Part shown: piece after piece, positions 7,535 through 62,549 of the stretch
Numbering within the stretch: the first letter of the stretch is position 1
How the letters are laid out: every line of letters starts with the position of its first letter
Position numbers and translations under genes: made by a program
The notes under the pieces: model-generated
Databases searched by the model: none
What the model was told of the DNA's origin: nothing
What the model saw: only the letters and a program-made list of their open reading frames with translations
Source: Candidatus Zipacnadia bacterium
Lineage (GTDB): Bacteria; Armatimonadota; Zipacnadia; Zipacnadales; UBA5352
Assembly: GCA_029820295.1 (NCBI GenBank)
Contig: JALGVA010000006.1
Span: 1,793-65,792, forward strand
Direction: 5' to 3'
DNA: 64,000 nucleotides

Positions 7535-8455
7535 ATGCCGCTGCGGGAGAGAGGTGGACTGAGGGTGTCCGAGTCCGCGCGGTCCGAGTTCGGCAGCGTG
7601 CGCGTCGGCCTGCACTTCGCGGAGGCGGTCACCGCCGCGGAGCTGGCCGCCTGCGGCTGCGACCACGCCGAGGTGGTCGAGCAGGTCGCGCCGCTGGTGC
7701 CCGCGCCCGACCACGAGCGCGCGCGCCGCATCGCCTCCACGCTGGCGCGCCGGGTGATGTGCGACTGCGCCGCACGCGGGGACGATGGCTGCGACGGCCC
7801 GCCCTGCACGCTGCCGGAGCTGATCGCCGCAGCGGGCCGCCGCCTGGACGCGCGGCACCTGCTGCTCTACGCGACCGCGCGCCGCGAGCGGCTCGTGATG
7901 GCCGTCGCCGAGGAGGTCTTCTACCCGCGCTTCGTGCTGGGGCGGATGCCCGCGGGCATGAGCGAGGCGGACTTCGCCGCCATCAACGCCGGCCGGCTGC
8001 TCGAGACCGACGAGGTCATCACCCACCGGCTGGTCGATGAGTACGCGCGCCGGCGCTGGCGACTCGACGACCCGACCAGCACGCAGTGCGCGCTGCGCAT
8101 CCTGCGCGAGGGCGGGGCGCTGGGCGCCACCTGGATCAGCCGTGACGACGGTCGCTGCCTGGGGTACTTCCCGACCCACCGCGGCCCGGGCTGGCAGGCG
8201 TTCGTCTACGCGCTCTGGGAGGAGTTCGCATCACGGGGCAGAAGAACCGTTCCTCGCGCGCACCTGCGCATGATGGCGCTCTCGCGCCTGTTCTGCCTGC
8301 GCGGGCCGGTCGTCGATGTGCTGGCCGAGCGCGCGGCCGCGGCGGGCTTCTGCACCATCGACGGGCGCCGCTCGGGAGGGCCTATCACCGCCACCCACGA
8401 CAGCTTCGAGCAGGCCGTGGGCGCCCTCGCGGACGGCTACCGCTGCGAGGCGTAG
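7535..8455 (+). CDS. hypothetical Cys-rich protein
   Basis: 306 aa with very high GC3 in this frame. No motif recognised. Cys cluster CGCDH...CDCAARGDDGCDGPPC. The exact start is uncertain. Confidence 0.6.
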   Translation: MPLRERGGLRVSESARSEFGSVRVGLHFAEAVTAAELAACGCDHAEVVEQVAPLVPAPDHERARRIASTLARRVMCDCAARGDDGCDGPPCTLPELIAAAGRRLDARHLLLYATARRERLVMAVAEEVFYPRFVLGRMPAGMSEADFAAINAGRLLETDEVITHRLVDEYARRRWRLDDPTSTQCALRILREGGALGATWISRDDGRCLGYFPTHRGPGWQAFVYALWEEFASRGRRTVPRAHLRMMALSRLFCLRGPVVDVLAERAAAAGFCTIDGRRSGGPITATHDSFEQAVGALADGYRCEA

Positions 8456-8582
8456 CCGACGGTCAACGCCCGCCGCGGGGTCTCGTCATCGGTGGGGCAG
8501 GCCTCCAGCCTGCCGGCGCCGTCGATCATCGGGCGGCGAGTGCCGTGCCGTACGGAGGGGCCGCAGCGAGCGAAGCGAGCTG

Positions 8583-8622
8583 TGAGACCTGCATGCCTGC
8601 GCGAGCAGGCGGGCAGGTCTCA
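8583..8622 (+). other. long composite hairpin in the spacer upstream of the giant NTPase gene
   Basis: tgagacctgc-at-gcctgc-GCGA-gcaggc-gg-gcaggtctca: 10 + 6 bp with a GNRA-type tetraloop. A second perfect 8-bp hairpin lies at 8664-8685 (cgacgggc GGAGAA gcccgtcg). A third 6-bp hairpin lies near 8497-8515. Confidence 0.6.
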
Positions 8623-8750
8623 GGTTCCATCCCGGCCCGCTCCTGGCCAGCGCCAGCAAGCGCCGACGGGCGGAGAAGCCCGTCGCACGGGAAGGTCGGG
8701 GCGTGGAGCGACCCGAGCGAAGCGCACACAACACGCGCCAACGGTGACTG

Positions 8751-11700
8751 ATGACACTCGCGGAACTCATCACAATCGAGGGGCTGCAGGAGAGCTTCGA
8801 GCTGGCCGACGCCGCCGCGCTGCGCCGGCGCCTGCTGCGCGATCCCGACGAGGACGCCGTCGCCGCACTCGACGGCGTTCTGTCCGCGTACGCCGCCGAT
8901 GACCCCGAGGCCGATGCCGCGCTGTCCACCGTGCTGGCCAGCCTCGCCCGCCGCGACGGCAAGGGCGACGGCTTTCTGGTTACCGGGCCCGCGGGCGCCG
9001 GCAAGAGCCACCTGCTGTGCACGCTGCTGCTGCTCGCCGGCTGCGGGCGCGCGCGCAAGAAGCTGGCCCTGGCGAAGACCGCGCTGGCCGACCATCTGCG
9101 CGCGCTGCACGAGGCCGCGCCCGTGCTGGTCGTCCCGCTGCCGCTTGAGGAGCACAGCGGGCGCGACGAGCTGCTCGAGGACATCGTCTTCGAGCGCACC
9201 GAGTGGGAGCTGCGCCGCCACCCCTACGACATCGTCGTGCCGCTCTCGCAGCACTCCTACGCCCTCGAGCTGATCGAGCGCCACGTCGCGCCGCGCTTCG
9301 AGGCCGAGCTGGACGCCTACATCGCCGAGCGCACCGGTCGCGCGCAGAGCTGGGCCGAGCTGCGCGACCGCGACGAGGAGTCGGCGGTGCGCGTGGGCCA
9401 TCAGTTCGCGCAGTCGATCGGCTACCCGCTGGACTTCCGCCAGTCGCGCGTCGAGCGCATGGCGCGGTTGCTCGAGATCGCCGACGGCGAGCGCATCTCC
9501 GGCGTGCTCTACCTCATCGACGACCTGGGCCGCTTCCTCGCCAGCGTCGAGGAGAAGGCCATGCAGGGCGACCTGGTCTTCCTCGAATTCCTGGCCCATC
9601 GGGGCAAGATCGCGCCCATCTGGACCGTCGCCGCGCTCGAGGTGCCGCTGCGTGAGATCCCCGGCGTCGAGCCGCACCTGGCGCGCCGCATCTCCGACCT
9701 CTACGGCGGCGGCCTCGCTCTCAGCTCCGCGCACATGCGGCGCGTGGTCGCCGACGCCGTGCGGCCCGCGGAGGACGTGGACTGCGGCCCGGCGCTGGAT
9801 GAGATGGTCGCCGCCTACGCCAACGCCTTCGAGGACGGTCCGGCGCCCGAGGAGCTGCTGGAGCACTACCCGCTCGACCCGCTGGCGGCGCAGTGCGCCG
9901 GCGAGCTGGCGGGGCGCGTGCTCGGGCGCGCCGACGGGCTGCTGACCGTGATCCGGCGCGCCGCCGAGGCCGGGATGCTCGACGAGCGCAGCCACCTGCA
10001 GCCACTGACCGTCGCCGAGGTCTTCGACGTCATGCAGCCGCAATTGCGTTCCACGCCGGACGCCGCGCCCTACCTCGCCCAGGCGCTGGAGTACTACGAG
10101 ACGCACGCCGCCGAGGTCGATCCGCGCAATCCCGACCTGCTGCGCCGCACCGTGCGCGCTCTGATCGCCCTGCGGCTGGCGAACCTGTGGCCGGGCGAGG
10201 AGGAGTTGCGCGTCGCCCTGGGCCTGGCCTCGGACGGCACGCCGCTGGCCGAGCCCGAGGAGCTGCGCGGCGTGCTCGAGGCGGCGCGTTTGCACGGGCG
10301 CTTCGTCGAGGTTCGGCGTGGGCGCGATGAGAACGAGGACGTGTACTGCATCGAGGTGCACACCCCGCTGAGCGACACGCTGCGCGAGCGGCTCTCACTG
10401 GCGCGCGAGAGCATCGCGCGCGATGACCCGCGCCTGATGGAGGCAGCCGTCGCGCACTCCGGCCCGGCGCTGCCGCTCGCGGAGCTGGTTGACGGGCCCG
10501 TGCTCGAAGTACGTTGGCGCAACACCGGCCGCGGTATGTCCGCAAGCCTGGAGAGCGTGCTGCGCATCGACGAGCTGGACATCAGCCGGCGCGTGCAGGA
10601 GCTGTCCGACCCATCCAACATCGCCAGCGTGCACCTCTACGTCGGCGGGCTGATCGCGCCGGAGACTCAGCGCACGCGCTGGCGCGAGATCACCGACACC
10701 GCCATGGCCGGGCGCTGGGCCGCCTCGGTACTGTGCTGGCTGCCGCGCCCCCTGCACGAACGCGAGCTGGACGCCCTGCGCGACTGCGCCGCCTGCCGCC
10801 TGCTGCTGGGCCAGCGCGACAGCCTCGAGCAGGAGAAGGGCCTGGTGCAGCGCCTCGAGGAGGAGGAGGCGCGGCTGGGCGCGCAGGTGCGTGAGATCGT
10901 GCGCGCGGCGTACTACGAGGGCGCCGTGCTCTCGGCCTTCGGCGAGATCGTCTCGGCGGGCGAGCTGGGCGCGATGGCGGGCGACTGGACCACCGCGCTG
11001 AGCAGCATCGCGAGCTGGGCGCTCGAGCGTATCTTCCCCGAGTTCGCGCGCATCGCCCCGCGCCAGCTCCTGGCCGAGCGCGAGCAGATCGACAGCATCA
11101 TCGACGACTTCGTGCGCCCGGGCGAGGTGGTGACCGACGCCGAGTCGCGCCTGGGCACGCTGATCGAGGCCTTCATGATCCCGCTGGGCGTGGCGCGCCG
11201 CGAGGGCGACGGCTACCTGCTCGACATCGCGCGCAGCGCCGCCGCCGATGAGGTCATGCAGCGCATTCGCGCCCGCGATCAGACCCCCGAGACGCGCCGC
11301 GGCCGGCCGCTGGCGTGCGCCGACCTCGCCGAGCATCTGCTCAAGTCCGAGTTGGGGCTGCCGCCCGAGCTGTTCGAGCTGCTCATCGCCTCGCTCATCC
11401 GGCGCGGCTACCTGATGGCCCTCGACGCCGAGGGGGAGCCGGTGCAGCTCGCCGACATCCCCACGCCCATCGCCCGGCACCTGCAGATGGTGGCGCGGCC
11501 GGCGCTGCTGTCATACGAGCAGTGGACCGCGCTCTCGCGCATCTGCCGCATCATGTTCGAGCAGGCGGTCGCCAACCCCGACCACGCCGCACAGGCCGCC
11601 GTCTGGGAGGCGTTGGTGCAGGCGCGGGGGCAGTGGCTGACGCGTGTGGCCGAACTACGCGAGGGCGTCGGCTCGCTGCGCGAGCGCCTCGGCCAGCCCG

Positions 11701-12737
11701 TGGCGGCGTGGCGCGAGTCACTCGCGGCGTTGAGCCACGTCGAGCGCTTCCTCGACCTGATCGACCCGGGCTCGTACGCGGCCGAGGGGCTCCAGCGGCT
11801 GCTCGACGGCGCCGAGCCCTACCTGGAGACCACCAACGGCGTCAGCAAGCTGCGCGATCTGCTGCGCGTCGTCGAGCTGCTCGAGCACTTCGTGCGCGAC
11901 GTCGGCCCGCAGCTCGTGGCGCTGCAGAGCTATCTGACCGATGAGGACCTGTGGCTCCCCGCCGACTCAGACCTGGTCGAGCTGCGCGACCGGCTGCTGG
12001 GGATGATCTGCTCGGGCGAGCAGGCCGTGGGCGAGGAGCAGGCCTTCGTGCGGCTGGCGCAGGTGTTCTTCACGCGCTATCGGCGGCGCTACGCCGCCTG
12101 GCACAACGCCGCCTACCGCGCCTCGGCGTTCGAGCCCTACAACGCCGTGCGCGCCACGCCCGAGATGCGCGTGCTGTCGGCGCTCGATCGCCTCGACCTG
12201 CAGGTGCGCCACGACCTCAGCTACGTCAACGAGCAGATCGAGCGCGAGCTGGCCAAGCGCTGCCGGGAGATGAAGCTGGCGGAGGCGCTGGAGCTGCAGC
12301 CTGTGTGCCCGACCTGTGGCCTGCGGCTGGGCGAGGAGCTGAACCTGCGCCCCGCTTCGGAGCTGGAGGCGCTGGCGCGGCAGGGGGTCGAGGAGTACCT
12401 CGCCACGCTTAGAGAGCCGACCAACCAGCGGGCGCTGGCGGAGTACATCCGCACGCTGCCGCATCGCGGGGAGACCACCCGTCGGCTGGCGGAGCTGGTG
12501 CGGCTGCCCGAGGACACCGGCGCGCGCGGGCTGATGCCGCTGCTGGGCGATGACGTGCTCACGCACCTGCAGCGCGCCTTCGCGGGCCAGCAGGTGCGCT
12601 CGCGCAGCCTGCGCGACCTGCGCGGCCTGCTCGCCGGCCGCACCATGAGCCGCGATGAGATCCTCGAGGCCCTGCAGCAGTGGGTCAACGGCCAGGACCA
12701 GGCCGACGACGATGACCTGCTGCACATTGAACCGTAG
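8751..12737 (+). CDS. giant P-loop NTPase, BrxC/PglY-like or DUF6079-like architecture (1328 aa)
   Basis: Walker A FLVTGPAGAGKSHLL at about aa 75-90. Candidate Walker B VLYLIDDLG at about aa 250. Very long helical remainder. CPTCG motif about 170 aa from the C-terminus. High GC3 throughout. Confidence 0.8.
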   Translation: MTLAELITIEGLQESFELADAAALRRRLLRDPDEDAVAALDGVLSAYAADDPEADAALSTVLASLARRDGKGDGFLVTGPAGAGKSHLLCTLLLLAGCGRARKKLALAKTALADHLRALHEAAPVLVVPLPLEEHSGRDELLEDIVFERTEWELRRHPYDIVVPLSQHSYALELIERHVAPRFEAELDAYIAERTGRAQSWAELRDRDEESAVRVGHQFAQSIGYPLDFRQSRVERMARLLEIADGERISGVLYLIDDLGRFLASVEEKAMQGDLVFLEFLAHRGKIAPIWTVAALEVPLREIPGVEPHLARRISDLYGGGLALSSAHMRRVVADAVRPAEDVDCGPALDEMVAAYANAFEDGPAPEELLEHYPLDPLAAQCAGELAGRVLGRADGLLTVIRRAAEAGMLDERSHLQPLTVAEVFDVMQPQLRSTPDAAPYLAQALEYYETHAAEVDPRNPDLLRRTVRALIALRLANLWPGEEELRVALGLASDGTPLAEPEELRGVLEAARLHGRFVEVRRGRDENEDVYCIEVHTPLSDTLRERLSLARESIARDDPRLMEAAVAHSGPALPLAELVDGPVLEVRWRNTGRGMSASLESVLRIDELDISRRVQELSDPSNIASVHLYVGGLIAPETQRTRWREITDTAMAGRWAASVLCWLPRPLHERELDALRDCAACRLLLGQRDSLEQEKGLVQRLEEEEARLGAQVREIVRAAYYEGAVLSAFGEIVSAGELGAMAGDWTTALSSIASWALERIFPEFARIAPRQLLAEREQIDSIIDDFVRPGEVVTDAESRLGTLIEAFMIPLGVARREGDGYLLDIARSAAADEVMQRIRARDQTPETRRGRPLACADLAEHLLKSELGLPPELFELLIASLIRRGYLMALDAEGEPVQLADIPTPIARHLQMVARPALLSYEQWTALSRICRIMFEQAVANPDHAAQAAVWEALVQARGQWLTRVAELREGVGSLRERLGQPVAAWRESLAALSHVERFLDLIDPGSYAAEGLQRLLDGAEPYLETTNGVSKLRDLLRVVELLEHFVRDVGPQLVALQSYLTDEDLWLPADSDLVELRDRLLGMICSGEQAVGEEQAFVRLAQVFFTRYRRRYAAWHNAAYRASAFEPYNAVRATPEMRVLSALDRLDLQVRHDLSYVNEQIERELAKRCREMKLAEALELQPVCPTCGLRLGEELNLRPASELEALARQGVEEYLATLREPTNQRALAEYIRTLPHRGETTRRLAELVRLPEDTGARGLMPLLGDDVLTHLQRAFAGQQVRSRSLRDLRGLLAGRTMSRDEILEALQQWVNGQDQADDDDLLHIEP

Positions 12738-12916
12738 GGCCCGACAGACGGGCGGCGCGCGCCGGGGGCCGGTGAGCGTTCTTGTTCATACAAGCTTAAA
12801 TCGGCGCGCGGAACTTCCGTGCGTCAGGTTCGTTTAAGCGCATACAGCAGCTCAATCAGAGTGAATGCTCGCCGCAGGGACCCTATCATCCATCGACGCA
12901 CCCTATGTGCGAGCCA

Positions 12917-12952
12917 CCGCCCGGCATCCGTTGTCGGGCGGTCTTCTTTTGT
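12917..12952 (+). terminator. rho-independent terminator
   Basis: 7-bp GC stem ccgcccg/cgggcgg with an 11-nt loop, followed by tcttcttttgtg. The T tail is only on the plus strand. It lies about 180 nt after the stop of the 1328-aa gene. Confidence 0.6.
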
Positions 12953-13063: not shown

Positions 13064-14473
13064 TCACTTCGCCGGCGGCTCGAGTCTGGAGGCGGTGACC
13101 GCTGAGGCCGCGGTGGCCGGCTGGGGACCGTTGCGCAGGTCGGCGAGGCGGCGGTAGAGGAGCATGGTCACCGCCATGGCGACCGCGCCCAGCGCGAAGG
13201 CCACCATGTAGCGCCCCTGCGCGCCGATGATCGTCGCCGTCGCCAGGGGCATGAAGCACATCGGCAGCACCACGAGGTAGTAGGTCGCCATGTACACCGA
13301 GCGCGTGCGCTCGGGCGCCAGGTCCAGCAGGTAGGCCATGTGGGCGGTGAACTGCCCGCTCTCGCCCGCGCCCGCGGCGGCCATCACTACCAGCAGCATC
13401 ACCAGCGGCAGGTCAAACTGCAACCCCAGCACGCTCCCCAGCGCCGCCCGCGGCAGCAGCGGCAGCGACAGCACCAGCAGCAACGCCAGCACCTCCAGCG
13501 AGCCCGCCACCAACAGCAGATAGCGGTTGCCGCGCACCGCGCTGAGCCGACTCCACAGCAGGTTGGAGAGGCTGTTGCTGAGCACCTTCGCCGCCAGCGC
13601 CAGTCCGACGATCGCCTCGGTCATCCCCAGGCCGCTGAACGCGTAGGGGATGATGAAGGGCGTGAACAGGCCCATGGCGACCGCCAGCATCACGCGTGAG
13701 AGCATGAAGCGCCGGAAGTTGGGCTCGCGTCGCGCGCGCCGCCAGCCGCGCACCAGCTGCGCCGACAGCGGCAGGCTGCGCGTCTCCACCTTGTGCCGCG
13801 GCTCGTAGGCGAACCACCACGACACGAGGGCGATGGCCGCGACGATGGTGGCCGCGCCGAACAGCCGCGCGTAGTTCTCCGGGAAGCCCAGCCCGCTGTG
13901 CTCGCCCAGCAGCCACTTGACCCAGAAGCCCGCGCCGAAGGCCATCAGCCCGCCGAAGAAGTAGCGCATGGCGAAGAACGCCCCGCGCCGCTCGGGCGGA
14001 ACCGAGTCGGTCACCACGCTCATGAACGGGATGAGGCCCAGCCCGCCGCCGGAGGTGTAGGCGAGGTAGCTCAGCGCCACGCCCACGAAGGCGATCGTCG
14101 GCCAGTCGGCGGCGACGTAGCGCGTTATCGCCCACACCGCGACCATCGCCGCCATGCGCACGACCGCCGAGATCTTGTAGTAGGTGTGCCGGCTCTGGCG
14201 CGTGGACATCACACTGGTGGTGAGCAGCGGCGGCCAGAACCAGCCGGCGTTGACCACGGAGACCAGCAGCCCGACGTAGAGGGGGTTGTCGCCCATCAGG
14301 GCCACGGCGAAGGCGGGCAGGATCGTGTCGGGGTCGGTGAGTGCGCGCGCCAGCAGCCAGAACGAGCCGTTGAAGACGCCCAGGCCGAAATTGCGGCGTG
14401 TGCGCTGCTCGACGGTCTCGGACATCGCTTCTCCCGCCGCAGTCGCGGCCTGCGGCTGACGACGTGAGGTCAC
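13064..14473 (-). CDS. MFS-type transporter
   Basis: 469 aa and about 12 hydrophobic helices with a central loop. The GTG start overlaps the upstream stop (GTGA). An alternative ATG lies at 14423-14425. Confidence 0.8.
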   Translation of the reverse strand: MTSRRQPQAATAAGEAMSETVEQRTRRNFGLGVFNGSFWLLARALTDPDTILPAFAVALMGDNPLYVGLLVSVVNAGWFWPPLLTTSVMSTRQSRHTYYKISAVVRMAAMVAVWAITRYVAADWPTIAFVGVALSYLAYTSGGGLGLIPFMSVVTDSVPPERRGAFFAMRYFFGGLMAFGAGFWVKWLLGEHSGLGFPENYARLFGAATIVAAIALVSWWFAYEPRHKVETRSLPLSAQLVRGWRRARREPNFRRFMLSRVMLAVAMGLFTPFIIPYAFSGLGMTEAIVGLALAAKVLSNSLSNLLWSRLSAVRGNRYLLLVAGSLEVLALLLVLSLPLLPRAALGSVLGLQFDLPLVMLLVVMAAAGAGESGQFTAHMAYLLDLAPERTRSVYMATYYLVVLPMCFMPLATATIIGAQGRYMVAFALGAVAMAVTMLLYRRLADLRNGPQPATAASAVTASRLEPPAK

Positions 14474-19955: not shown

Positions 19956-20304
19956 TGGTGGAGGCGGCGGGAATTGAACCCGCGTCCGAGAAGGGGTGTC
20001 CGGAGCGTCTACGAGCGTAGTGCCCGCTTTGAGTAACCGGGGCGGCCCCCGAGCACCGGGTCCGCCGCGGCAAGCTCGACTCTGCTACCCCCGCGCGCTA
20101 GTCGAGCACAGGCGCGCGCTTCGGCCGATCCAATGACGTCCGGCCCCGACCTGATCGGCGGGAGGTCGGGCGGACGTCGCGACGATTAAGCCGCGAGTGC
20201 CAAATCGGTGTTGGCGTTTTTGGGGTTCCGGCGTTTCACGAGAGTCCGGAGATCTCGGCTCGCAGCCCCGACTCACCAGCTCCCCGTCGAAGCCGGTCGC
20301 CCCC
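19956..20304 (-). ncRNA. ssrA: transfer-messenger RNA (tmRNA)
   Basis: 5-prime GGGGGCGACCGGCUUCGACGGGG and 3-prime GGGUUCAAUUCCCGCCGCCUCCACCA. The acceptor stem has a G3:U pair. Internal reading frame GCC AAC ACC GAU UUG GCA CUC GCG GCU UAA (20186-20215) gives tag ANTDLALAA. 349 nt. Confidence 0.92.
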
Positions 20305-22256: not shown

Positions 22257-22386
22257 CCCCGGCGGGGGCGTGGGGGGCACAACGGCAACCGCCGACAGGC
22301 GGCACCGTACCGGAGCTGCACCCCAGGCGGCACCCAGGCGTCCGCCGCTAGCCGGCGGCTGATGGCTGGTAGCTGTCCGCCGCGTC

Positions 22387-22395
22387 TGGTATAAT
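22387..22395 (+). promoter_or_regulatory. extended -10 promoter element (TGgTATAAT) upstream of the FHA/cell-wall cluster
   Basis: Perfect TATAAT at 22390-22395 with TG at 22387-22388. There is no good -35, as is often the case for extended -10 promoters. Confidence 0.4.
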
Positions 22396-22473
22396 CGAGT
22401 CGGCATGCGGGCGGCGGCCCGCTGTTTGACGTTCCGTGGTCGGGCCATCACGCCGCACTCCCCGGGGGCTGGT

Positions 22474-23127
22474 GTGTCTCTGCTCAGGCGCCTGGAGGAC
22501 GCGCTCGAGACGGTCATCGACGGCGGGCTGGCGCGCGTGGCCGGCGGCGGCGTGCATCCGCTGGAGATCGCGCGCCGGCTGCAGTCCGAGATGGCCGACG
22601 GCCGGTTGCTGGGCACCGACGCTTCCTACGTGCCCAACCGCTACGTGGTCACGCTCGCCGACGTCGAGATGGACCACCTGGGCGACGTCGCCGCCGGGAT
22701 CGCCGAAGAGTTGGGCCGGCACCTGGAGAGGCATGCGGCCGAGGAGGGCTGGGCGGTGGGCGATGGCGTGACGGTGCGTCTGCAGGGCGGGGGCAGGCCG
22801 GGGCGCATCGCCGTCGAGCGCGACTTCGACGAGCGCGCGCCCGGCGCGCGGCTGCTGGTGGAGGCCGGGCAGGCCGGCGGCAGCTTCGAGATCGGCGAGC
22901 GCGCGGTCATCGGCCGCGGTCCCGACTGCGAGGTGCTGCTGACCGAGCCGGCCGTCTCGCGCCGGCACGCCGAGATCGAGTGGACCTACCACGGCTACCG
23001 GCTGCGCGACCTGGGCAGCCGCAACGGGACCTTCGTAAACGCCGAGGAGGTGGACGAGGCGCTGCTGGCCGACGGCGACCTCATCGAGGTCGGGCTGGTG
23101 CAGCTCCGCTTCCACCCGATCGGCTGA
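22474..23127 (+). CDS. FhaA-like protein (DUF3662-type N-terminal domain plus C-terminal FHA domain)
   Basis: GTG 22474 (GGGGG 5 nt upstream) gives VSLLRRLEDALE, like FhaA N-termini. C-terminal FHA signature IGRGPDCEVLLTEPAVSRRHAEI...LGSRNGTFVN. The track ATG at 22405 is an alternative start. Confidence 0.8.
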   Translation: MSLLRRLEDALETVIDGGLARVAGGGVHPLEIARRLQSEMADGRLLGTDASYVPNRYVVTLADVEMDHLGDVAAGIAEELGRHLERHAAEEGWAVGDGVTVRLQGGGRPGRIAVERDFDERAPGARLLVEAGQAGGSFEIGERAVIGRGPDCEVLLTEPAVSRRHAEIEWTYHGYRLRDLGSRNGTFVNAEEVDEALLADGDLIEVGLVQLRFHPIG

Positions 23128-23172
23128 CCTGACGAGCCCGCGCACCCGAATCTGATCGGTCCTGAGGGATCC

Positions 23173-23841
23173 GTGTTGGGCCTGACCCTGGTCGTGACCA
23201 TCGGCAAGTACCTCCTGCTGGCGGGCCTCTACGCCTTCGTCTTCGTGGTGTTCCGGGGCATGATGGGGCAGATCGCGGCGGAGTCCGCGCGCGCGACCGA
23301 GGGCGGCCGCCGCGGCCGACGCCGGGAGGTCGCGTCGCGCCGGGCCATCATGCCGCAGGTGACCACCCGCCCTGCGCGGCCACCGCGCGCGGCGAGCCCC
23401 CCCGCGCCTGAGCCTGCGCTCGAACGCGCGCCCCAAGCTGCTCAGCAGGCTCCGCCCGCACGCGAGGCGTCCGCCCCGGAGGCGGCACCTGAGCCGGTGG
23501 CTCCCGCCGAGACCCCTCCCGCCGCTCCGCCCGCGCCCGCGGCGCCGCACCTGCGCGTGCTGGAGAGCGACGACGAGCGCCTGAGCGCCGGGGACACGCT
23601 GCCGTTGAGCGCCGCGGTCACCATCGGCCGCAGCGATGAGAACTCGGTGCGCCTGTCCGACCGCTTCGTCTCCAGCCGCCATGCCCTGATCTGCCTGCGC
23701 GACGGCCGGCGCCTGCTGGTCGATCGCGGCTCCACCAACGGCACCTTCCTCAACGGCGAGCGCGTTGAGGAGGAGGTCGAGCTGCACGACGGCGACCGCA
23801 TCGCCATGGGCAACACCGTCTTCGAGTACCACGTGGGCTGA
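23173..23841 (+). CDS. FhaB-like membrane-anchored FHA domain protein
   Basis: N-terminal TM, Pro/Ala-rich linker, C-terminal FHA (IGRSDENSVRLSDRFVSSRHALI...GSTNGTFLNG). Confidence 0.8.
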   Translation: MLGLTLVVTIGKYLLLAGLYAFVFVVFRGMMGQIAAESARATEGGRRGRRREVASRRAIMPQVTTRPARPPRAASPPAPEPALERAPQAAQQAPPAREASAPEAAPEPVAPAETPPAAPPAPAAPHLRVLESDDERLSAGDTLPLSAAVTIGRSDENSVRLSDRFVSSRHALICLRDGRRLLVDRGSTNGTFLNGERVEEEVELHDGDRIAMGNTVFEYHVG

Positions 23842-23907
23842 CCCGGCCCGGACGCGGGTGGGGATCGCCCGGCCGCACCGTGCGCTGCCCCGCCCCTGAG
23901 TCGTGAG

Positions 23908-25203
23908 GTGAATGTGATTCCGCGCAGCCAGCGGACCGAGCTTGCCCTGCTGCTCTTCGCCGCGGCCCTCGTGGGCTTCGGCGCCGCGCTGGTGTGCCTG
24001 GGCATGGGCTTTCCGGTGTGGCGGGTGACGCGTGCCCTGGCGGTGGTGGGCGCCTTCATCGCCGGTGCCATGATGCTCGACCTCGCCGACCCGCGCCGCG
24101 ACCGCTGGCTGCTGCCCATCATGGCGGCCATCTCGGGTGTGGGCTTCCTGCTGCTGTGGCAGCTCGACGGCGGCTCGGCGTCGCGGCAGATCGTGTGGAT
24201 GATCACCGGCGCGGGCATCATGGTCGCGGTCTACTACCTCATCGAGGACGTGCGCGACCTCGCCCGTCTGAAGTACACCAGCGGCGTGCTGGCGCTGGTG
24301 CTGGTGGGCCTGACGCTGGCCTTCGGCGTGGAGAAGGGCGGCGCGCGCCTGTGGCTGGCGATCCCGGGCGTCATCATGTTCCAGCCCACCGAGCCGGTGA
24401 AGGTGCTCATGTGCATCTTCCTGGCGGGCTACGTGGCGGACCGCCGCGAGCTGCTGCGCGAGGACACCCACCGCGTGGCCGGCTTCCAGATGCCGCGCGC
24501 GCGGCACATCGCGCCCCTGCTGCTCATGGTCATCTTCGCCCTGACCATCTTCGTGGGCCAGCGTGACCTGGGCGCCGCCGTCCTCTTCTTCGGCCTGTTC
24601 GTGGCGATGGCGTACCTCGCCACCGGCCGCAAGTCATACTCCATCCTGGCGCTGGTGCTCTTCGCCGGCGGCGCCGTCGGGGCGTACCACGCCTTCCCGC
24701 ACGTCGCCGCCCGTGTGGACATGTGGCTCAACCCCTGGGCCGATCCGGAGAACCGCGGCTATCAGATCCTGCAGAGCATGTTCGCGCTCGCCGAGGGCGG
24801 CCTGGTAGGCACCGGCTTCGCCACCGGCGGCGGTGACACCATCCCGGCCGCCACCACCGATCTGATCTTCGCCGTCGGCGCCCAGCAGTTCGGGCTGCTC
24901 GGCGCCGTCGCCATCGTCGTCCTCTACGCCCTCGCCGCCCACCGCTCGTTCAGCATCGCCTGGCGTGCCACGGATAACTTCGGCGCGCTGCTGGCGGCGG
25001 CGCTGGCCGTCGTGTTCTCGCTGCAGACCCTGGTCATCCTCGGCGGCGTCACCCGGCTGATCCCGCTCACCGGCATCACGCTGCCCTTCATGAGCTACGG
25101 CGGCACCTCGGTGATCGTCAACTTCATCGCGCTGGCGCTGCTGCTCGCGATCTCCCGTGACTGCACGCCGCATCGCCCGCCGGGCGAGGTTCTCCCGCGA
25201 TGA
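23908..25203 (+). CDS. rodA: FtsW/RodA/SpoVE (SEDS) family peptidoglycan polymerase
   Basis: 431 aa and polytopic. Motifs LAIPGVIMFQPTEPVKV, TTDLIFAV, and PLTGITLPFMSYGGTSV at the C-terminus. Confidence 0.9.
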   Translation: MNVIPRSQRTELALLLFAAALVGFGAALVCLGMGFPVWRVTRALAVVGAFIAGAMMLDLADPRRDRWLLPIMAAISGVGFLLLWQLDGGSASRQIVWMITGAGIMVAVYYLIEDVRDLARLKYTSGVLALVLVGLTLAFGVEKGGARLWLAIPGVIMFQPTEPVKVLMCIFLAGYVADRRELLREDTHRVAGFQMPRARHIAPLLLMVIFALTIFVGQRDLGAAVLFFGLFVAMAYLATGRKSYSILALVLFAGGAVGAYHAFPHVAARVDMWLNPWADPENRGYQILQSMFALAEGGLVGTGFATGGGDTIPAATTDLIFAVGAQQFGLLGAVAIVVLYALAAHRSFSIAWRATDNFGALLAAALAVVFSLQTLVILGGVTRLIPLTGITLPFMSYGGTSVIVNFIALALLLAISRDCTPHRPPGEVLPR

Positions 25204-26600
25204 ACGAGCTGGCGCGTGCTATCAGGCGAGTCGCGCTCGTGGCCGCGGTGGGCTTCGCGGTGTTGTGCGTCTACCTGAGTTGGTGGCAGGTGCTGCGCGC
25301 CCCGGCGCTGCGTGCCGACGAGCACAACTCGCGCGCCCGCGACCGCCTGCGCACCATCGAGCCCGGCGAGGTGCTTGATGCCGACGGTGAGGTGCTGCTG
25401 GGCGTGGAGCGGGGCCGCGAGGGCTGGGAGCGCACCTACCCCGCCGGACGCTACGTCGCCCACCTGACCGGGTACAACGATCGCAGCGGCCTGCAGCGCG
25501 GCCTGCGCGACGCCCTGCTGGGCGTGGGCCGCTACGAGAAGCCGTGGGCGGAGTTCATCGAGGGCCCGCTGCGCGGCAACGATGTGAAGCTGACCGTGGA
25601 CCTCGATGCCCAGCAGCTCGCCACCCGTCTGCTGCGCGGCCGGCGCGGCGCGGTGGTGGCCCTGGGCGCGCAGACCGGGGCGATCCTCGCGCTGGTGAGC
25701 GCGCCCGCCTACGACCCCGCGCGCATCCTCGACAGCGAGTGGGACTACCGGCTCTTCCAGGAGGACCCGGAGCTGCCCGAGCTTGACCGCGCGCTGCAGG
25801 GCCTCTACCCGCCCGGCTCGGTGCTCAAGGTCATGACCGCCGCGATCGCCCTCGACCTCGATCGCGTCGAGCCCGACACCACCTTCGAGTGCGCCGGCAG
25901 CTACGAGATCGGCGGGGCCAAGATCACCTGTCCGCGCGCGCACGGCAAGGTCACGCTCGCCGAGGCGCTCGCGGTGTCGTGCAACACCACCTTCGCGCGC
26001 CTGGGCGAGTACGTCGGCGGGGACGAGTTCATCGACTACGTGCAGCGCTTCGAGCTGCTCGAGCCCGCGCACATCCCTCTGCCCGCGCTGCCGGGGAAGA
26101 TCGGCGACCTGGGCCGTCAGAGCGACGGCGTGCTGCTCGCCGAGACCGCCTTCGGCCAGGGCGAGACGCTGGTGACGCCCTTCGCCATCGCGCGCCTGAC
26201 CCAGGCGTTGGCCAACGGCGGCACCATGATCGAGCCCTACCTCGTCTCCGAGGTGACCTCGCCCGCCGGGCACGTCGTTGCGAGCGCCCGCGAGCGCGTG
26301 GCCGGGCAGCCGGTGAGCGCCGGCACCGCCGCCCAGGTGGCAGGGATGATGGTGGGCGTCGTGGAAGAGGGCACCGGGCAGGTCGCGGCGCTGCGCGGCA
26401 TCGAGGTCGCGGGCAAGACCGGCTCGGCAGAGAATCCGCATGGTGAGGCGCACTCGTGGTTCACGGCCTTCGCGCCCGCCGACCGCCCGGAGGTGGTGGT
26501 CACCTGCGTGGTGGAGAACGCCGGCGCCGGCTCCGAGGCCGCCGCGCCCATCGTGCGCGAGATGCTCACGCATCTGCTGCGGCGGGCGGGCGTGAGATAG
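25200..26600 (+). CDS. class B penicillin-binding protein (PBP2/PbpA-type transpeptidase)
   Basis: SxxK (GSVLK), SxN (SCN) and KTG (GKTGSAE) motifs in the correct order. Its ATG overlaps the rodA stop (ATGA). Confidence 0.9.
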   Translation: MNELARAIRRVALVAAVGFAVLCVYLSWWQVLRAPALRADEHNSRARDRLRTIEPGEVLDADGEVLLGVERGREGWERTYPAGRYVAHLTGYNDRSGLQRGLRDALLGVGRYEKPWAEFIEGPLRGNDVKLTVDLDAQQLATRLLRGRRGAVVALGAQTGAILALVSAPAYDPARILDSEWDYRLFQEDPELPELDRALQGLYPPGSVLKVMTAAIALDLDRVEPDTTFECAGSYEIGGAKITCPRAHGKVTLAEALAVSCNTTFARLGEYVGGDEFIDYVQRFELLEPAHIPLPALPGKIGDLGRQSDGVLLAETAFGQGETLVTPFAIARLTQALANGGTMIEPYLVSEVTSPAGHVVASARERVAGQPVSAGTAAQVAGMMVGVVEEGTGQVAALRGIEVAGKTGSAENPHGEAHSWFTAFAPADRPEVVVTCVVENAGAGSEAAAPIVREMLTHLLRRAGVR

Positions 26601-26601
26601 C

Positions 26602-28509
26602 ATGCGACGAGGTGATGCCAACGTGGAGGGCACGCTGATCGCCGACAGGTACCGCGTCGATGCCCTCATCGGCGAGGGCGGCATGGCCCTGGTCTACCGC
26701 GGCACCGACACTACCCTCGACCGCCGCGTGGCCATCAAGATCCTGCGCCCCGGGCTGAGTGAGCAGCACGACGTCGTCGCGCGTTTCCGCCGCGAGGCCC
26801 ACGCCGCCGCCAAGCTCAACCACCCCAACATCGTGCAGATCTACGACACCGGCGTGGACGACGGCAGGTACTACATCGTCATGGAGTACCTGCCCGAGAT
26901 GAACCTCAAGGAGGTCATCAAGCGCTACGCGCCGCTGCCGCTGGACAAGGTCGTCGAGTTCGCCGTGGCGTGCTGCGAGGGGCTGGCCCACGCCCATCGC
27001 CAGGGCATCGTGCACCGCGACATCAAGCCGCACAACGTGCTCTTCACCGACGACGGCCGGGCCAAGCTGTCGGACTTCGGCATCGCCGCGGCGGCCGGCG
27101 AGGCCGGGCTGACCGAGGACGGCAAGGTCCTCGGCTCCGCGCACTACATCTCGCCCGAGCAGGCGCAGGGCGCCGCCGCCGGACCGCTGTCGGACATCTA
27201 CTCCCTCGGCGTGACTCTCTACGAGGCCGTGACCGGGCGCCTGCCCTTCAACGGCGAGACCGCGGCCGACATCGCCGCCCAGCACCTGCGCGAGGCCCCG
27301 CCCTCGCCGCGCTCGGTCAACCCCGACATCCCGCCCGCCGCGGAGTTCATCATCCAGAAGGCCATGGCGCGCGATCCCCAGCGCCGCTACCGCTCCGCCG
27401 ACGAGATGCTCGCCGACCTGCGCAAGCTCGAGCGCGGCCTGGACCTCGATCAGACCGGCGTGCTGCCGCCCACGCCGCCGGATGCCACCGTGGCGCTGCC
27501 GCGCGCGCCCGAGTCGGCACGGCGCCCACAGCCCACCTACGCGGAGCCCCCTGCCGCCCAGGCGGTGCGCCCGGTCACCGCTGCGCCGCGCCGGCCCCGC
27601 CAGGAGAATTCGGCAAACGCCGTCCTCGCGGGGGTCGGCGTCGGACTGCTGGCGGTGCTGGTGATCGTCGCCGTCGTCTGGCTGGTGCGCGCCGCCTTCT
27701 ACCCGCACGCCACGCCGACCATGATCGAGGTGCCCAACATCAAGGGCCTCACCGAGCAGCAGGCGCGCGATGCCATCGAGGAACGCGGGCTGGTGGTGGG
27801 GCGGGTCGAGCAGCAGTTCAACGATCTGCTCCCCCAGGGCGAGGTGACCGAGCAACAGCCCGCGCCCGGGCAGATGGTGCAGTCGGGCTCGACCGTGGAC
27901 ATGGTCGTGAATCTGGGCAAGGAGACGGTCTCGGTCATCGACGTCGTGGGCACGCGCGTGGAGCGCGCGCAGGCGCTGCTTGAGGCCGACGGCCTCACCC
28001 TGGGCGAGGTCACCGAGTACTTCCACGAGACCGAGCCGGCGGGCATCATCTTCGAGCAGGCCCCGCGCCCGGGCACGCGCGTGGACAAAGGCACCGGTAT
28101 TGATGTGTCGGTCTCCAAGGGCCCCGAGGAGCAGGCGCCGCCCGAGGAGCCCACGGAACCGGAGCCCGATGAGACTGTCGAAAACGGTGGCGAGACGCCC
28201 GGCGAGGAGCCCCAGGCCGCGGACCCGCGCGTCTTCGTCGACCAGGTCGGGGAAACCGAGGCATCGGGGTTGCGCAAGTTCCAGGTGCGCGTGATCGCCA
28301 CCGGTGAAGCCCCCGACCAGCAGATCGAGGTACGCTACCGCGATGAGAGCGGCTACGAGCGCCACGAGGAGTTCTCCCTGCAGCCCGGCGACAGCCGCAT
28401 CGTCGAGATCCGCACCGAGGGCACGGTGACCATCACGGTCTACCACCAGGACGGCGTCGTCTTCGAGAACACCTACCAGCTCGAGCAGGAAGAAGAGGCC
28501 GCCCCCTAG
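26602..28509 (+). CDS. Ser/Thr protein kinase with TM segment and two extracellular PASTA domains (PknB-like)
   Basis: Hanks kinase motifs VAIK, HRDIKPHN, DFGIA, SPEQ. TM AVLAGVGVGLLAVLVIVAVVWLV. Two PASTA-like repeats (VPNIKGLTEQQARDAIEE..., VIDVVGTRVERAQALLEA...). Confidence 0.9.
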   Translation: MRRGDANVEGTLIADRYRVDALIGEGGMALVYRGTDTTLDRRVAIKILRPGLSEQHDVVARFRREAHAAAKLNHPNIVQIYDTGVDDGRYYIVMEYLPEMNLKEVIKRYAPLPLDKVVEFAVACCEGLAHAHRQGIVHRDIKPHNVLFTDDGRAKLSDFGIAAAAGEAGLTEDGKVLGSAHYISPEQAQGAAAGPLSDIYSLGVTLYEAVTGRLPFNGETAADIAAQHLREAPPSPRSVNPDIPPAAEFIIQKAMARDPQRRYRSADEMLADLRKLERGLDLDQTGVLPPTPPDATVALPRAPESARRPQPTYAEPPAAQAVRPVTAAPRRPRQENSANAVLAGVGVGLLAVLVIVAVVWLVRAAFYPHATPTMIEVPNIKGLTEQQARDAIEERGLVVGRVEQQFNDLLPQGEVTEQQPAPGQMVQSGSTVDMVVNLGKETVSVIDVVGTRVERAQALLEADGLTLGEVTEYFHETEPAGIIFEQAPRPGTRVDKGTGIDVSVSKGPEEQAPPEEPTEPEPDETVENGGETPGEEPQAADPRVFVDQVGETEASGLRKFQVRVIATGEAPDQQIEVRYRDESGYERHEEFSLQPGDSRIVEIRTEGTVTITVYHQDGVVFENTYQLEQEEEAAP

Positions 28510-28556
28510 ACGGGGCGATGGCCGGCGATGGGAGTGACGGAACGATGGCAGGGCAG

Positions 28557-29294
28557 ATGAAGCTGCTGCTGGGGGCGAGCGTGCTGATCCTGGCCACGGT
28601 GCCGTGCTGGTCGGCGCCGACGGTGGCCGGAACCACGAACCTGGTGGCCGCCGAGAACGGCGGCCGCATCGCCAAGTTCTCCAGCCAGGCGGTAGACGAG
28701 AACGGACAGCCCCTGGCCGTGTGGTCGGTGACCAACCTTATCGACGGCAAGTACGTGGTCGGCTCGCACACCCCCGCGGATTCCTACGGCTGGCGCTCGC
28801 GCGGCGTCCCCGCGGCCGACCGGCCCGAGTGGATCATCTTCGAGCTGCCCGAGACCCGGCTGATCAGCCGCGTGGTCGTCGATCCCACCACCGACGACCC
28901 CGAGTTCCTCGGCCGCTGGGCCAAGAGTATCCGCGTCTCCGTTTCCACCGAGGGCGTCGATGGCCCTTACAAGACGGTGGGCTCGTACCTGGTGGTGCGG
29001 CGCGGCATCAAGCAGAGCTTCGACTTCACCCCCGTTGAGGCGCGCTGGGTCAAGCTCGACATCACCGAGAATTGGGGCTCCGACTTCGCCGTCGAGCTGG
29101 GCGAGTTCGAGGTCTACGAGGCGATCGTGGGGGACGACATGCTCGATCAGCTCATCCAGCGGTTGAGCACGCTGCTCGACGAACTCAAGCGCTACCGCGA
29201 CGCCGAGCGCTACCAGCAGCACCAGGCGAGCATCGAGGCGGTGACCAGCAGGCCCGAGCCGCCCGCCGAGGAGGCCCCGGCCGCGCAGCAGTAG
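28557..29294 (+). CDS. secreted F5/8 type C (discoidin, galactose-binding-like) domain protein with C-terminal coiled coil
   Basis: Signal peptide MKLLLGASVLILATVPCWSAP. NLIDGK...W...EWIIFELP...RVVVDP...VRVSVS...RWVKLDI is discoidin-like. The track ATG at 28518 is an alternative start. Confidence 0.65.
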   Translation: MKLLLGASVLILATVPCWSAPTVAGTTNLVAAENGGRIAKFSSQAVDENGQPLAVWSVTNLIDGKYVVGSHTPADSYGWRSRGVPAADRPEWIIFELPETRLISRVVVDPTTDDPEFLGRWAKSIRVSVSTEGVDGPYKTVGSYLVVRRGIKQSFDFTPVEARWVKLDITENWGSDFAVELGEFEVYEAIVGDDMLDQLIQRLSTLLDELKRYRDAERYQQHQASIEAVTSRPEPPAEEAPAAQQ

Positions 29295-29345
29295 GCTCGC
29301 GGAAGGCGCGTCAGGAGGGGGCTGCCGCATCGTCCGGGCGCGATG

Positions 29346-29374
29346 TTGCGCGGGCCTCGACAAGCGGGTATGAT
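29346..29374 (+). promoter_or_regulatory. candidate promoter of the toxin-antitoxin pair
   Basis: TTGCGC, 17-nt spacer, TATGAT, in a locally AT-richer spacer. Confidence 0.3.
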
Positions 29375-29379
29375 AATCC

Positions 29380-29389
29380 CGGGTACCCG
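29380..29389. promoter_or_regulatory. perfect 10-bp palindrome CGGGTACCCG just downstream of the candidate -10 (possible operator)
   Basis: Self-complementary decamer located between the putative -10 and the SD (GGAAGGGGG) of the antitoxin gene. Confidence 0.3.
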
Positions 29390-29422
29390 AACTGACTATC
29401 GACCAGGAAGGGGGCGACACCC

Positions 29423-30133
29423 ATGGAGACCATCTGCGCCGCTGACCGAGGTGTTTACACGCCTCGCCAGGTGTCTCTGCTGGTCAACCTGAGGCTTGAC
29501 AGCCGCTTCGACGCGGACACCTTTCGACGTTGGGCACATGGCTACGAGCGCGCGGGCCGCGTATACGAGCCCGTCATCCATCCCGAGTACGGTCCCGAAG
29601 CCCCGGTCCTGAGCTTCGTGGACCTCCTCGAGTTGATGTTCATTGGGGCATTGCGCCATCGGGACGTGTCACTGCCGGTCATCCGAGCAGCGGCACTGAA
29701 CGCTGCCCGGCGATTCCAGACCGATCATCCCTTCGCGGTCCGCAGGTTCCGCACTGACGGCAGGGCCATCTTCGCTGATCTGGAGCGCAACGGCCCCCCT
29801 CCCATAGACCTGCCGTCCCGCCGTCTGGTTGAGGAGCTTCACAGAGCCCAGATGGTGTTCCCAGAGATGGTCGAACCCTACCTCGAGGACATTGACTGGG
29901 GGGAGGTCGAGGCGCAGGCGTACTGGCCCTTCGGCCGAGAGGCCGGCATCGTGCTGGAGCCTGGCCGCTCCTTCGGCCAGCCCATCGACGCCGATACCGG
30001 CGTCCCGACGGAGGCTCTCTACTCGTTCTTCTCGGCGGGTGACAACCCGCAAATCATCGCCGAATGGTACGAGATACCCGTGGAAACGGTTGAGAGGGCA
30101 GTCGAGTTCGAGCGCGCGCTTCGGGCGGCATGA
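29423..30133 (+). CDS. DUF433-containing putative antitoxin with extended N-terminal DNA-binding-like domain (VapB45-like architecture)
   Basis: 236 aa. The C-terminal about 70 aa (PGRSFGQPIDADTGVPTEALYSFFSAGDNPQIIAEWYEIPVETVERAVEFE) match the DUF433/COG2442 pattern. The stop overlaps the next ATG (ATGA). Confidence 0.7.
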   Translation: METICAADRGVYTPRQVSLLVNLRLDSRFDADTFRRWAHGYERAGRVYEPVIHPEYGPEAPVLSFVDLLELMFIGALRHRDVSLPVIRAAALNAARRFQTDHPFAVRRFRTDGRAIFADLERNGPPPIDLPSRRLVEELHRAQMVFPEMVEPYLEDIDWGEVEAQAYWPFGREAGIVLEPGRSFGQPIDADTGVPTEALYSFFSAGDNPQIIAEWYEIPVETVERAVEFERALRAA

Positions 30134-40655: not shown

Positions 40656-41345
40656 CTACGTCGAGAGCCATCCTTCCAGCTCCCCCACGATCGCCCGCAC
40701 CGCATGCTTCGCCTCATCGAAGCGCCGCGCGCGATGCAACGGGAGGACCTCATCGGCGTGGCGGACGGCGAAGCGCTGCTGGATCTGATTATCCACCACC
40801 GGCACGCGCAGTGAACGAATCTCGTCGAAGCTCAGGTTCGCTGGGCCCACGCCGTTGAGCAGGCGGTGGATCTGCGCCCAGCCGAAGCGCGTGCGCAGGA
40901 AGGCCGCCGCGAAGTCAGGCTCGATGCCCTGCAGCCGCACCAGGTCCACGAAGCAGTCGACCACGGCCGGCGTGTCCTCGTGGTAGACCGCAAGCCGGTT
41001 CTTCTCGAGCGACCCCGCGCCTGAGCGCGCGATGAGCAGATCACCAGGTTGCACGCGCGCGCGCTCGATGCCCCAGGGCGAGTCGGCCGGGACGCGCGCC
41101 AGGCCATCGAGATCGACGCCACTGGCCAGCAGCGCGCCCTGGCCGATGAGCGCCGGACCCTCGGGGGCGGCGGGCGCGCGCTGCCCGGTGACGATCGCCC
41201 CGTAGGTGATGTGCGTGATGAACTCGCCCAGCGGCGCCAGCGGCGTCGCGCACTCGGCGAGGATCGCGTCGTACGCCGGGTGCCAGTAGCCCGGGTCGAG
41301 GCGCTCGACGAGACGGTCGTCCTGGGGGCGGCGGGCGATGAACAC
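40656..41345 (-). CDS. solitary half-size type I restriction-modification specificity (HsdS-like, single TRD) protein
   Basis: GTG 41343-41345 with AGGGAGA 7 nt upstream. RLDPGYWHP, LGEFITHITYG, VQPGDLLIARSG, FLRTRFGWAQIHRLLNGVGPANLSFDEIRSLRVPV and the following Q-containing helix match the Methylase_S pattern. Confidence 0.6.
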   Translation of the reverse strand: MFIARRPQDDRLVERLDPGYWHPAYDAILAECATPLAPLGEFITHITYGAIVTGQRAPAAPEGPALIGQGALLASGVDLDGLARVPADSPWGIERARVQPGDLLIARSGAGSLEKNRLAVYHEDTPAVVDCFVDLVRLQGIEPDFAAAFLRTRFGWAQIHRLLNGVGPANLSFDEIRSLRVPVVDNQIQQRFAVRHADEVLPLHRARRFDEAKHAVRAIVGELEGWLST

Positions 41346-62546: not shown

Positions 62547-62549
62547 CGC

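Follow-up and report, generated by a model that had tools for sequence, protein, structure and literature searches.

The locus described in this work raises the question of what a BrxC-type ATPase does when the other genes of a bacteriophage exclusion (BREX) system are not found around it. The locus lies in a stretch of 64,000 nucleotides from a Candidatus Zipacnadia bacterium (GenBank assembly GCA_029820295.1, contig JALGVA010000006.1), referred to here as the window, and consists of two plus-strand genes, coding for proteins of 306 aa (7535..8455) and 1328 aa (8751..12737). BrxC is the least understood of the core BREX parts, and BREX as a whole is still without an agreed mechanism. The larger protein of the pair is a solo BrxC/PglY (DUF6079)-family AAA+ ATPase according to profile and model comparison, the smaller one a lineage-specific accessory partner related to BrxA. 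On balance, we lean towards the view that the ATPase is a BREX-derived, ATP-gated DNA-binding switch, kept by the host as a domesticated defence component.

The first step towards an answer is the family identity of the 1328-aa protein, which the original prediction, made from the DNA sequence of the window, had called BrxC/DUF6079-like. Its direct match to the Pfam family DUF6079 (PF19557, named 'BrxC-PglY_N' in newer Pfam releases) scores 35.6 bits against a 23-bit cut-off and covers aa 823-1225 only; according to a recent survey, DUF6079 is the top profile for all BrxC ATPases. The PADLOC models of BrxC-PglY (25.6 bits) and SspC (short stretches, E 4e-4 and weaker) give marginal matches, and DUF499, the other family put forward for checking, has no Pfam match in the protein. 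Because the direct Pfam match is partial, a stricter profile-profile homology test was made with hhalign, comparing a profile of 24 homologues with one of 20 canonical DUF6079 proteins: the alignment runs over aa 2-1329 (1113 columns, 21% identity) with 99.5% probability and E 3.7e-23. AlphaFold2 models were built with the family alignment as input (predicted local distance difference test score, pLDDT, of 88.7 for aa 1-800 and of 86.4 for aa 701-1328). When the model of aa 1-800 was submitted to Foldseek, the best PDB matches were the Acinetobacter BrxC structures 9zll and 9zdx (E 7e-12 to 2e-9, about 600 aligned columns, 14-16% identity, target-normalised template modelling score of 0.58), followed by ORC and Cdc6 and, far lower, by DnaA domain III; a sequence-only PDB search barely picks up the Acinetobacter BrxC (E 0.09). 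For the model of aa 701-1328, Foldseek returned no significant fold match in the PDB, with Rad50, MukB and cohesin appearing only at E > 1, which was to be expected since only the N-terminal part of BrxC has been solved. Besides this lack of a fold match, an AAA+ head and the position of the CxxC in a loop of the helical arm led to the rejection of an SMC/Rad50-type zinc-hook reading of the C-terminal half. The earlier label has thus held: profile and structural-model comparison place the 1328-aa protein in the BrxC/PglY (DUF6079) family, as a member that is very diverged but full-length and that is atypical in its DD Walker B and its extra insert.

From the N- to the C-terminus, the models show an AAA+ core and lid, a winged helix, an alpha/beta domain, a further pair of winged helices, a long helical arm and a small alpha/beta domain, a succession that agrees with the published BrxC architecture, the C-terminal part having no solved structure for comparison. 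All coordinates below are on the plus strand. The ORC/Cdc6-clade AAA+ module (aa 71-415; 8961..9995), so classified from its structural matches to BrxC and then to ORC and Cdc6, holds the two motifs that had been announced near aa 80 and aa 250. The Walker A, GPAGAGKS, occupies aa 79-86 (8985-9008), with G79, G84 and K85 invariant, and the Walker B, of the form hhhhDD (LYLIDD), occupies aa 253-258 (9507-9524), with D257 and D258 invariant. In a comparison of 164 sequences, the Walker B was DD in 41 of the 41 members of the Zipacnadia clade and DE in most relatives; the catalytic glutamate of the hhhhDE form was found in no member of the clade. The DD form marks a variant of the family and is compatible with homology to BrxC/PglY. 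Within the same domain lies a helical insert (aa 167-248; 9249..9494) with the near-invariant motif YPLDFRQSRVER; it is the most conserved segment of the whole protein (invariant columns: 23 of 82), is without a counterpart on the canonical DUF6079 side of the hhalign alignment, and is also present in the wider solo and fusion subfamily described below.

Downstream of the ATPase module, the models contain a first winged helix (aa 416-538), an alpha/beta domain (aa 539-775) and a second and third winged helix (aa 776-920), together spanning 9996..11510; the third (aa 829-920) is at least as conserved as the ATPase core. The long helical arm (aa 921-1200; 11511..12350) carries a conserved H...C...CxxC set formed by H1118 (12102-12104), C1171 (12261-12263) and C1186 to C1189 (12306-12317), the last pair belonging to the CPTCG motif (aa 1186-1190) that had been noticed near the C-terminus and whose two cysteines proved invariant. 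Each of the four residues is conserved in 163-164 of the 164 family members, canonical DUF6079 has a matching C...CPHC, and the set can reasonably be taken as a putative structural zinc site. The C-terminal alpha/beta domain (aa 1201-1328; 12351..12734), delimited from the secondary structure of the model, stands in the position of the BrxC dimerisation domain, and by analogy with the C-terminal domain of Acinetobacter BrxC the protein would dimerise through it. Overall, the AlphaFold2 secondary structure is 62% helix and 9% strand, with 68% helix after aa 920, so that the description of the protein as mostly helical is correct as far as it goes, but it passed over the winged-helix hairpins and the alpha/beta domain. 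Furthermore, conservation is even over the whole length, the DNA-binding modules included, and there is no hypervariable region, whereas the alpha/beta and winged-helix modules of BREX BrxC have been described as fast-evolving.

Two characterised or canonical relatives serve to place the protein. With the canonical DUF6079/BrxC of BREX type-3-like loci (P0266, 1242 aa, locus L065) it shares full-length homology, the H...C...CPxC set of the helical arm and, as far as the models show, domain order, and it differs in the insert, in the Walker B (DE in the canonical protein, DD in the window) and in most of its residues, identity being about 21%. The BrxC of the type 1 BREX of Acinetobacter (PDB 9zdx, 9zll; PMC13326643), the best structural match to aa 1-800, resembles it in its AAA+ domain of the ORC/Cdc6 type, with a winged helix behind it, and in having a BrxA partner, and its C-terminal dimerisation-type domain has a putative counterpart in the window protein; the catalytic residue E269, for which an E269Q mutant has been published, is, however, an Asp in the window protein. 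Both relatives work in company: the P0266 operon includes a 996-aa methyltransferase and PglZ, and the Acinetobacter protein acts with BrxB, PglZ and PglX, none of which was found at the window locus.

The search for such partners covered the 64-kb window and 16-20 kb (8-10 kb each way) around the homologues examined, the gene calls in the fetched loci being rough. In the window, the predicted proteins were scanned, including the open reading frames (ORFs) in the gaps of the first gene list, against Pfam and in some cases also PADLOC. Neither PglZ (PF08665) nor a PglX-type N6-methyltransferase or PAPS-reductase domain protein was found among the scanned window proteins, and there was no match to BrxB, BrxL or a BREX helicase among them with Pfam/PADLOC, a scan which a very diverged BrxB could escape. 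Likewise, PglZ (PF08665) was not found among the Pfam-scanned conserved neighbour families of the 54 homologue loci, and no BREX partner was found when 8-10 kb to either side of the gene were inspected in the 54 species-representative genomes, nor beside three solo outgroup relatives. As a positive control, the same look-up on the canonical 1242-aa DUF6079 protein did return its BREX-type operon with methyltransferase and PglZ. The earlier statements that PglX, PglZ, BrxB and BrxL are missing and that the ATPase is an orphan have therefore been confirmed within this scope, and, the search for the defining partners having come out empty, the locus does not count as a BREX system.

The same search bears on the proposal that BREX is split in these organisms, with PglZ, PglX and BrxB encoded elsewhere in the chromosome and acting in trans. 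In its favour, BrxA and BrxC are both core BREX components, and the limitation of the partner search to the window and the homologue surroundings leaves room for it; we nevertheless regard it as improbable. BREX genes normally form one operon, present in about 10% of genomes (PMC13326643), the solo gene occurs in 54 species, and no partner was met in 64 kb or in the 16-20 kb around any homologue. Moreover, identity to canonical DUF6079 is only about 21%, the conserved insert sits in the AAA+ domain, which in BrxC binds BrxB, and the BrxA-like gene has been lost from most lineages. Another DUF6079/BrxC-type ATPase outside the six classical BREX types has been reported in a HerA/FtsK-centred BREX-related system (Rakesh & Krishnan, bioRxiv 10.1101/2025.10.09.681413), whose seven conserved components include PglZ, a STAND NTPase, HerA/FtsK and TGT; the window locus has none of the four. 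A large BREX survey discarded hits which could not be assigned, attributing them to incomplete gene neighbourhoods, and the literature search returned no description of a solo, vertically inherited BrxC-like lineage.

How the gene has been transmitted can be read from its relatives, all of which come from metagenome-assembled genomes (MAGs) of uncultured organisms. An indexed protein search returned 37 clusters of close relatives, whose named members all come from MAGs of Armatimonadota or 'candidate division WS1', and in addition a small number of remote BrxC-PglZ fusions. When each GTDB species was represented by a single genome, 54 of the genomes scanned carried the gene, all of them Armatimonadota and many labelled Candidatus Zipacnadia (formerly "WS1"), which corresponds to the GTDB class UBA5377; it is present in a single copy in each, nearly always full-length, at 32-91% identity. 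In the window, its upstream neighbours are two GFO/IDH/MocA oxidoreductases, IGPS and a DeoC-type aldolase, and downstream there are an MFS transporter, a PQQ-like propeller, a DUF1638-hydantoinase fusion and Rrf2. In the closer clade of homologues (59-91% identity), one flank holds DeoC, IGPS, two small membrane proteins and two oxidoreductases, and the opposite flank MFS, PQQ, a HEAT-like protein and DUF1638-hydantoinase. In the deeper clade (36-41% identity), a membrane protein and the two oxidoreductases are often kept upstream, and elsewhere in this clade the gene has TrpRS to one side and a PfkB kinase to the other, LptC/LptA-like genes being close by. The neighbour set persists over the range of identity from 91% to 37%: a membrane protein, two GFO/IDH/MocA oxidoreductases, the gene itself, and MFS or LptC/LptA-like genes. 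In addition, the pairwise identities of the gene and of the adjacent oxidoreductase are correlated (Spearman 0.84, and 0.87 within the closer clade), and the ratio of nonsynonymous to synonymous substitution rates (dN/dS) is 0.12 against a 91%-identical orthologue, with values of 0.14 to 0.26 for the neighbours. No integrase, transposase or other mobile-element domain occurs among the flanking genes scanned. A phage origin of the gene was rejected, no relative having been found among the IMG/VR viral contigs. The gene is thus vertically inherited at a conserved locus among metabolic and cell-envelope genes, which suggests a defence part passed down as an ordinary chromosomal gene and kept for another job; the pattern argues for a host-maintained function, short of proving a non-defence role.

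Since long spurious ORFs are common in DNA of high GC content (about 71% throughout the window), the composition of the codon positions was checked as well. The GC content at third codon positions is 0.93 for the 306-aa ORF and 0.95 for the 1328-aa ORF, and at second positions it is 0.56 and 0.45, respectively, low as in other real genes of the window; in the frame plot, a minus-strand gene ends near 7400 and is followed by the two plus-strand genes and then by a convergent minus-strand gene from 13064, so that the pair has minus-strand genes on either side. Both ORFs are real genes, and their composition is native to the window, as had been judged earlier from codon usage. A further idea is that the ATPase gene is the decaying, functionless remnant of a former BREX locus. 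The other BREX genes were indeed not found there, but a frame of 1328 codons that is intact, and full-length in dozens of species, a dN/dS as low as that given above, a catalytic Walker A and many other residues that are invariant, and the high GC content at third positions make this hardly credible, and in practice it is refuted by the conservation data.

The 306-aa protein may be a second trace of BREX ancestry. The original prediction had listed BrxA among the missing components and had described this uncharacterised neighbour by its cysteine cluster; both points need correction. The gene itself stands as reported, and its product matches Pfam BrxA (PF08849) at 25.8 bits (cut-off 23 bits, E 1e-5), aa 25-137 (7607-7945) being aligned to profile positions 11-112 of 184. 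BrxA matches at E <= 0.01 were obtained for 12 of 16 homologues, and one homologue carries the NCBI name 'BrxA family protein'. A PDB sequence search with the 306-aa family profile did not find BrxA, a fold of two or three helix-turn-helix modules, sequence-only searches being almost blind to both proteins of the pair. The assignment as a diverged BrxA-family member can thus be described as weak but consistent. The cysteine cluster which had drawn attention to the protein (aa ~75-91) was considered as a metal site and rejected: the stretch is variable, and C208 is the sole invariant cysteine. The dN/dS of the gene is 0.22 against an 86%-identical orthologue.

With a hidden Markov model of the family, the partner was found in 10 fetched loci from 9 distinct genomes, about a fifth of the loci, always directly upstream of the large gene and on the same strand, with gaps of 42-358 bp. 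Nine of these loci belong to the closer clade and one (L036) to the deeper clade; in the latter, the partner is 37% and the large protein 39% identical to the window versions, a pattern that, as far as sequence comparison goes, fits an ancestral pair which co-diverged, with repeated loss of the partner afterwards. The 306-aa gene is probably an ancestral partner, since lost in most lineages: several close relatives have the same flanking genes with no trace of it, as in L007, where a gap of 752 bp is left. As the partner is gone from many loci, it is dispensable for whatever keeps the large gene under selection, and an obligatory two-gene system, one of the options first considered, is not supported by this co-occurrence pattern. 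No BrxA-like genes were found near the outgroup relatives. Three genomes of the deeper clade have, 16-72 bp upstream of the BrxC-like gene and on the same strand, a conserved 331-aa ORF with no Pfam match (L019 6973-7968, L024 1226-2224, L053 2213-3208). It was tried as a diverged BrxA analogue, and the gene that closes the canonical BREX-type locus (251 aa) was tried for comparison with BrxA; a relation was detected in neither case, the 331-aa ORF having been compared by hhalign.

Beyond the phylum-restricted clade, an exhaustive profile search of 1.84 billion representative proteins gave 618 clusters at E <= 0.001 and 266 at E <= 1e-30. In a distance tree of the best 164 long sequences of the family, the Zipacnadia clade is nested in a broader group. 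Further solo proteins (about 1300-1450 aa), a set of proteins near 1250 aa in length and fusions in which a PglZ-like tail brings the length to 1650-1850 aa also belong to it, and there are at least 42 such fusions among these 164 best representatives. Three solo outgroup proteins sit by housekeeping genes (EF-P; ATP synthase and ribosomal protein S21; DNA ligase), and one solo outgroup protein clusters with members that NCBI labels as Armatimonadetes. The BrxC-PglZ fusions (1640-1850 aa; P0039, P0041, P0230) belong to the same diverged DUF6079 subfamily (E 1e-28 to 1e-37 against the window protein) and, like the window locus, have no methyltransferase nearby; unlike the window protein, they have a C-terminal PglZ-like domain, a conserved TPR neighbour and a DE Walker B.

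Some of these relatives are of interest in their own right. Fusions of a BrxC-like protein and a PglZ-like tail (1637-1754 aa) are encoded at L058 19-4932, L059 5079-10343 and L064 4594-9552, in Acidimicrobiales and Armatimonadetes MAGs and with no methyltransferase nearby; in L059 and L064, the loci that include the upstream region, a TPR protein lies directly upstream. The fusions with their TPR neighbour are uncharacterised as far as the literature searched shows, and the two genes may represent an undescribed BREX-derived system. In an Armatimonadetes MAG (L063 9001-19069), a gene for a 1246-aa BrxC-like protein is followed by five same-strand genes (562, 381, 147, 555 and 409 aa) with no Pfam hits on record and a weak RecD-like match as the only one in PADLOC; this gene set is a possible novel operon.

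Such relatives lend some colour to the view that the ATPase, alone or with the BrxA-like protein, is a minimal stand-alone defence module which does without DNA modification. The ATPase would sense and coat incoming DNA and so bring about a replication block or growth arrest, with no need of PglZ or PglX. The characterised relatives (BrxC, PglY and SspC-like proteins) are all defensive, the nearest larger ones (the BrxC-PglZ fusions and the 1246-aa form with its five unknown genes) resemble conflict systems, and the BrxA-like partner has been kept in some lineages. We consider this view doubtful all the same: there is no effector domain in or beside the 1328-aa protein, the PADLOC match to BrxC is marginal, and no hypervariable region and, among the scanned flanking genes, no mobile-element domain were seen. 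A single-copy syntenic locus which diverges with its neighbour across the class is unlike the patchy, island-borne distribution of defence genes.

The reading towards which we lean, that of a domesticated, ATP-gated switch, draws its mechanism from what has been established for BrxC. BrxC shows ATP-dependent binding of double-stranded DNA, combines a stable C-terminal dimer with ATP-dependent N-terminal contacts, forms higher-order assemblies on DNA, and is bound by BrxA, which reduces its DNA binding in vitro (PMC13326643). Because the solo protein keeps all the corresponding BrxC modules under selection, we infer an ATP-gated, dimeric DNA-binding switch. The protein would be a dimer joined via its C-terminal domain, in which ATP binding would bring the ORC/Cdc6-type N-terminal domains together and turn on DNA binding, with the DNA contacted through the winged-helix and alpha/beta domains. 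In AAA+ proteins, a change from Glu to Asp at the catalytic position is expected to slow hydrolysis and to favour a switch-like cycle. The clade-wide change from DE to DD would act in this way, so that the protein would not be a fast motor but a switch or clamp on DNA, gated by nucleotide. In the lineages that have it, the BrxA-like protein would tune DNA loading, as BrxA does for BrxC in vitro, and the conserved insert, located in the domain that BrxC uses for BrxB binding, may provide a different interface. With no effector or nuclease and no modification enzyme, the output cannot be restriction-modification of the BREX type.

A related proposal goes one step further and sees in the solo protein a lineage-specific, ORC/Cdc6-like, ATP-gated chromosome factor, with roles such as DNA organisation, replication control or repair, and in the BrxA-like gene a relic of the original system. 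We hold it to be possible, though with less confidence than domestication as such. The switch ATPases of the ORC/Cdc6 type are the next-best structural likeness for the AAA+ and winged-helix part, and by analogy the solo protein may use ATP as a binding switch, like proteins of the ORC/Cdc6/DnaA type (the Walker B of DnaA is also DD); unlike these, it has no detectable membership of their sequence families, is three times larger and possesses the BrxC-type C-terminal 900 residues.

Of the three options that had been offered at the outset, a host-domesticated relative is the one favoured by class-wide vertical inheritance, conserved synteny, and strong and even purifying selection. Several points weigh against it. 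Vertical inheritance and purifying selection are also compatible with a long-resident defence gene, and 'class-wide' means found in 54 species representatives, not universal. The BrxA assignment of the 306-aa protein comes from one Pfam model with a modest score, and BREX partners may be encoded in parts of the genomes beyond the surroundings searched. Finally, the genome is not poor in defence, as the window has other defence-type genes (QatC-like and HsdS-like).

The first of these is a QueC-like protein of 450 aa (61197-62549, minus strand) with a strong PADLOC match to QatC (185 bits, E 4.5e-55); with the adjoining minus-strand ORFs at 62550-63329 (259 aa) and 63420-63998 (an open frame of 192 aa), which have no matches, it may belong to a defence locus of the Qat type that the window end cuts short. 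The second is a 290-aa protein (40656-41528, minus strand) matched by many HsdS models (best 38.8 bits), which may be an orphan or a remnant, no HsdM or HsdR having been detected nearby.

As regards the non-coding parts of the locus, the two genes are separated by a spacer of 295 bp (8456..8750, plus strand), in which an inverted repeat, GAGACCTGC...GCAGGTCTC, can be read at ~8586-8623. A pattern scan of this spacer detected no sigma-70-like promoter. The spacer ranges from 42 to 358 bp across orthologous loci, and a conserved RNA or promoter within it was dropped as a candidate, nothing being detected and its length being variable. On the 3' side of the 1328-aa gene there are two terminator-like hairpins (12803..12952, plus strand), at 12803-12825 and at 12916-12942, the latter followed by a T-run; the pattern scan gave 3 sites against 0.7 in shuffles. 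The next gene past the hairpins is that of the convergent MFS transporter (13064-14473).

Other features of the window include a transfer-messenger RNA gene (19956-20304, minus strand; Rfam RF00023, 146.8 bits), about 7 kb downstream of the gene pair, and a plus-strand cluster (22363-28509) of FhaA, FhaB, RodA/FtsW, a penicillin-binding protein and a PknB-type kinase with PASTA domains, which is reminiscent of the cell-division cluster of actinobacteria; between its FhaB and RodA, no gene for a PP2C phosphatase was detected. The stretch of lowest GC content in the window (0.674; 28347-30133, plus strand) codes for an F5/8 type C domain protein and includes a DUF433 and HTH_66 protein, an antitoxin-like domain pairing. 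A minus-strand cluster (46461-51092) comprises a MoxR-type AAA ATPase, a DUF58 protein and a large transglutaminase-like TgpA protein. The cumulative GC skew has its minimum near 34-36 kb and changes sign near 35 kb, the flanking genes remaining on the minus strand; a link with a replication origin was dropped, DnaA boxes not being enriched in the window (2 matches against 1.7 expected).

The interest of the locus lies in the fact that a natural lineage with a BrxC-type protein alone, under strong selection and with neither nuclease, methyltransferase nor BrxB beside it, is a simplified system, one that could show the action of this ATPase itself on DNA, and its DD Walker B, its YPLDFRQSRVER insert and its H/C/CxxC set are ready handles for experiments. 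If the protein does have a housekeeping role, it would illustrate clearly how a defence protein can be drawn into core cell biology, and would add a new type to the DNA-binding AAA+ switches, from a phylum about which little is known.

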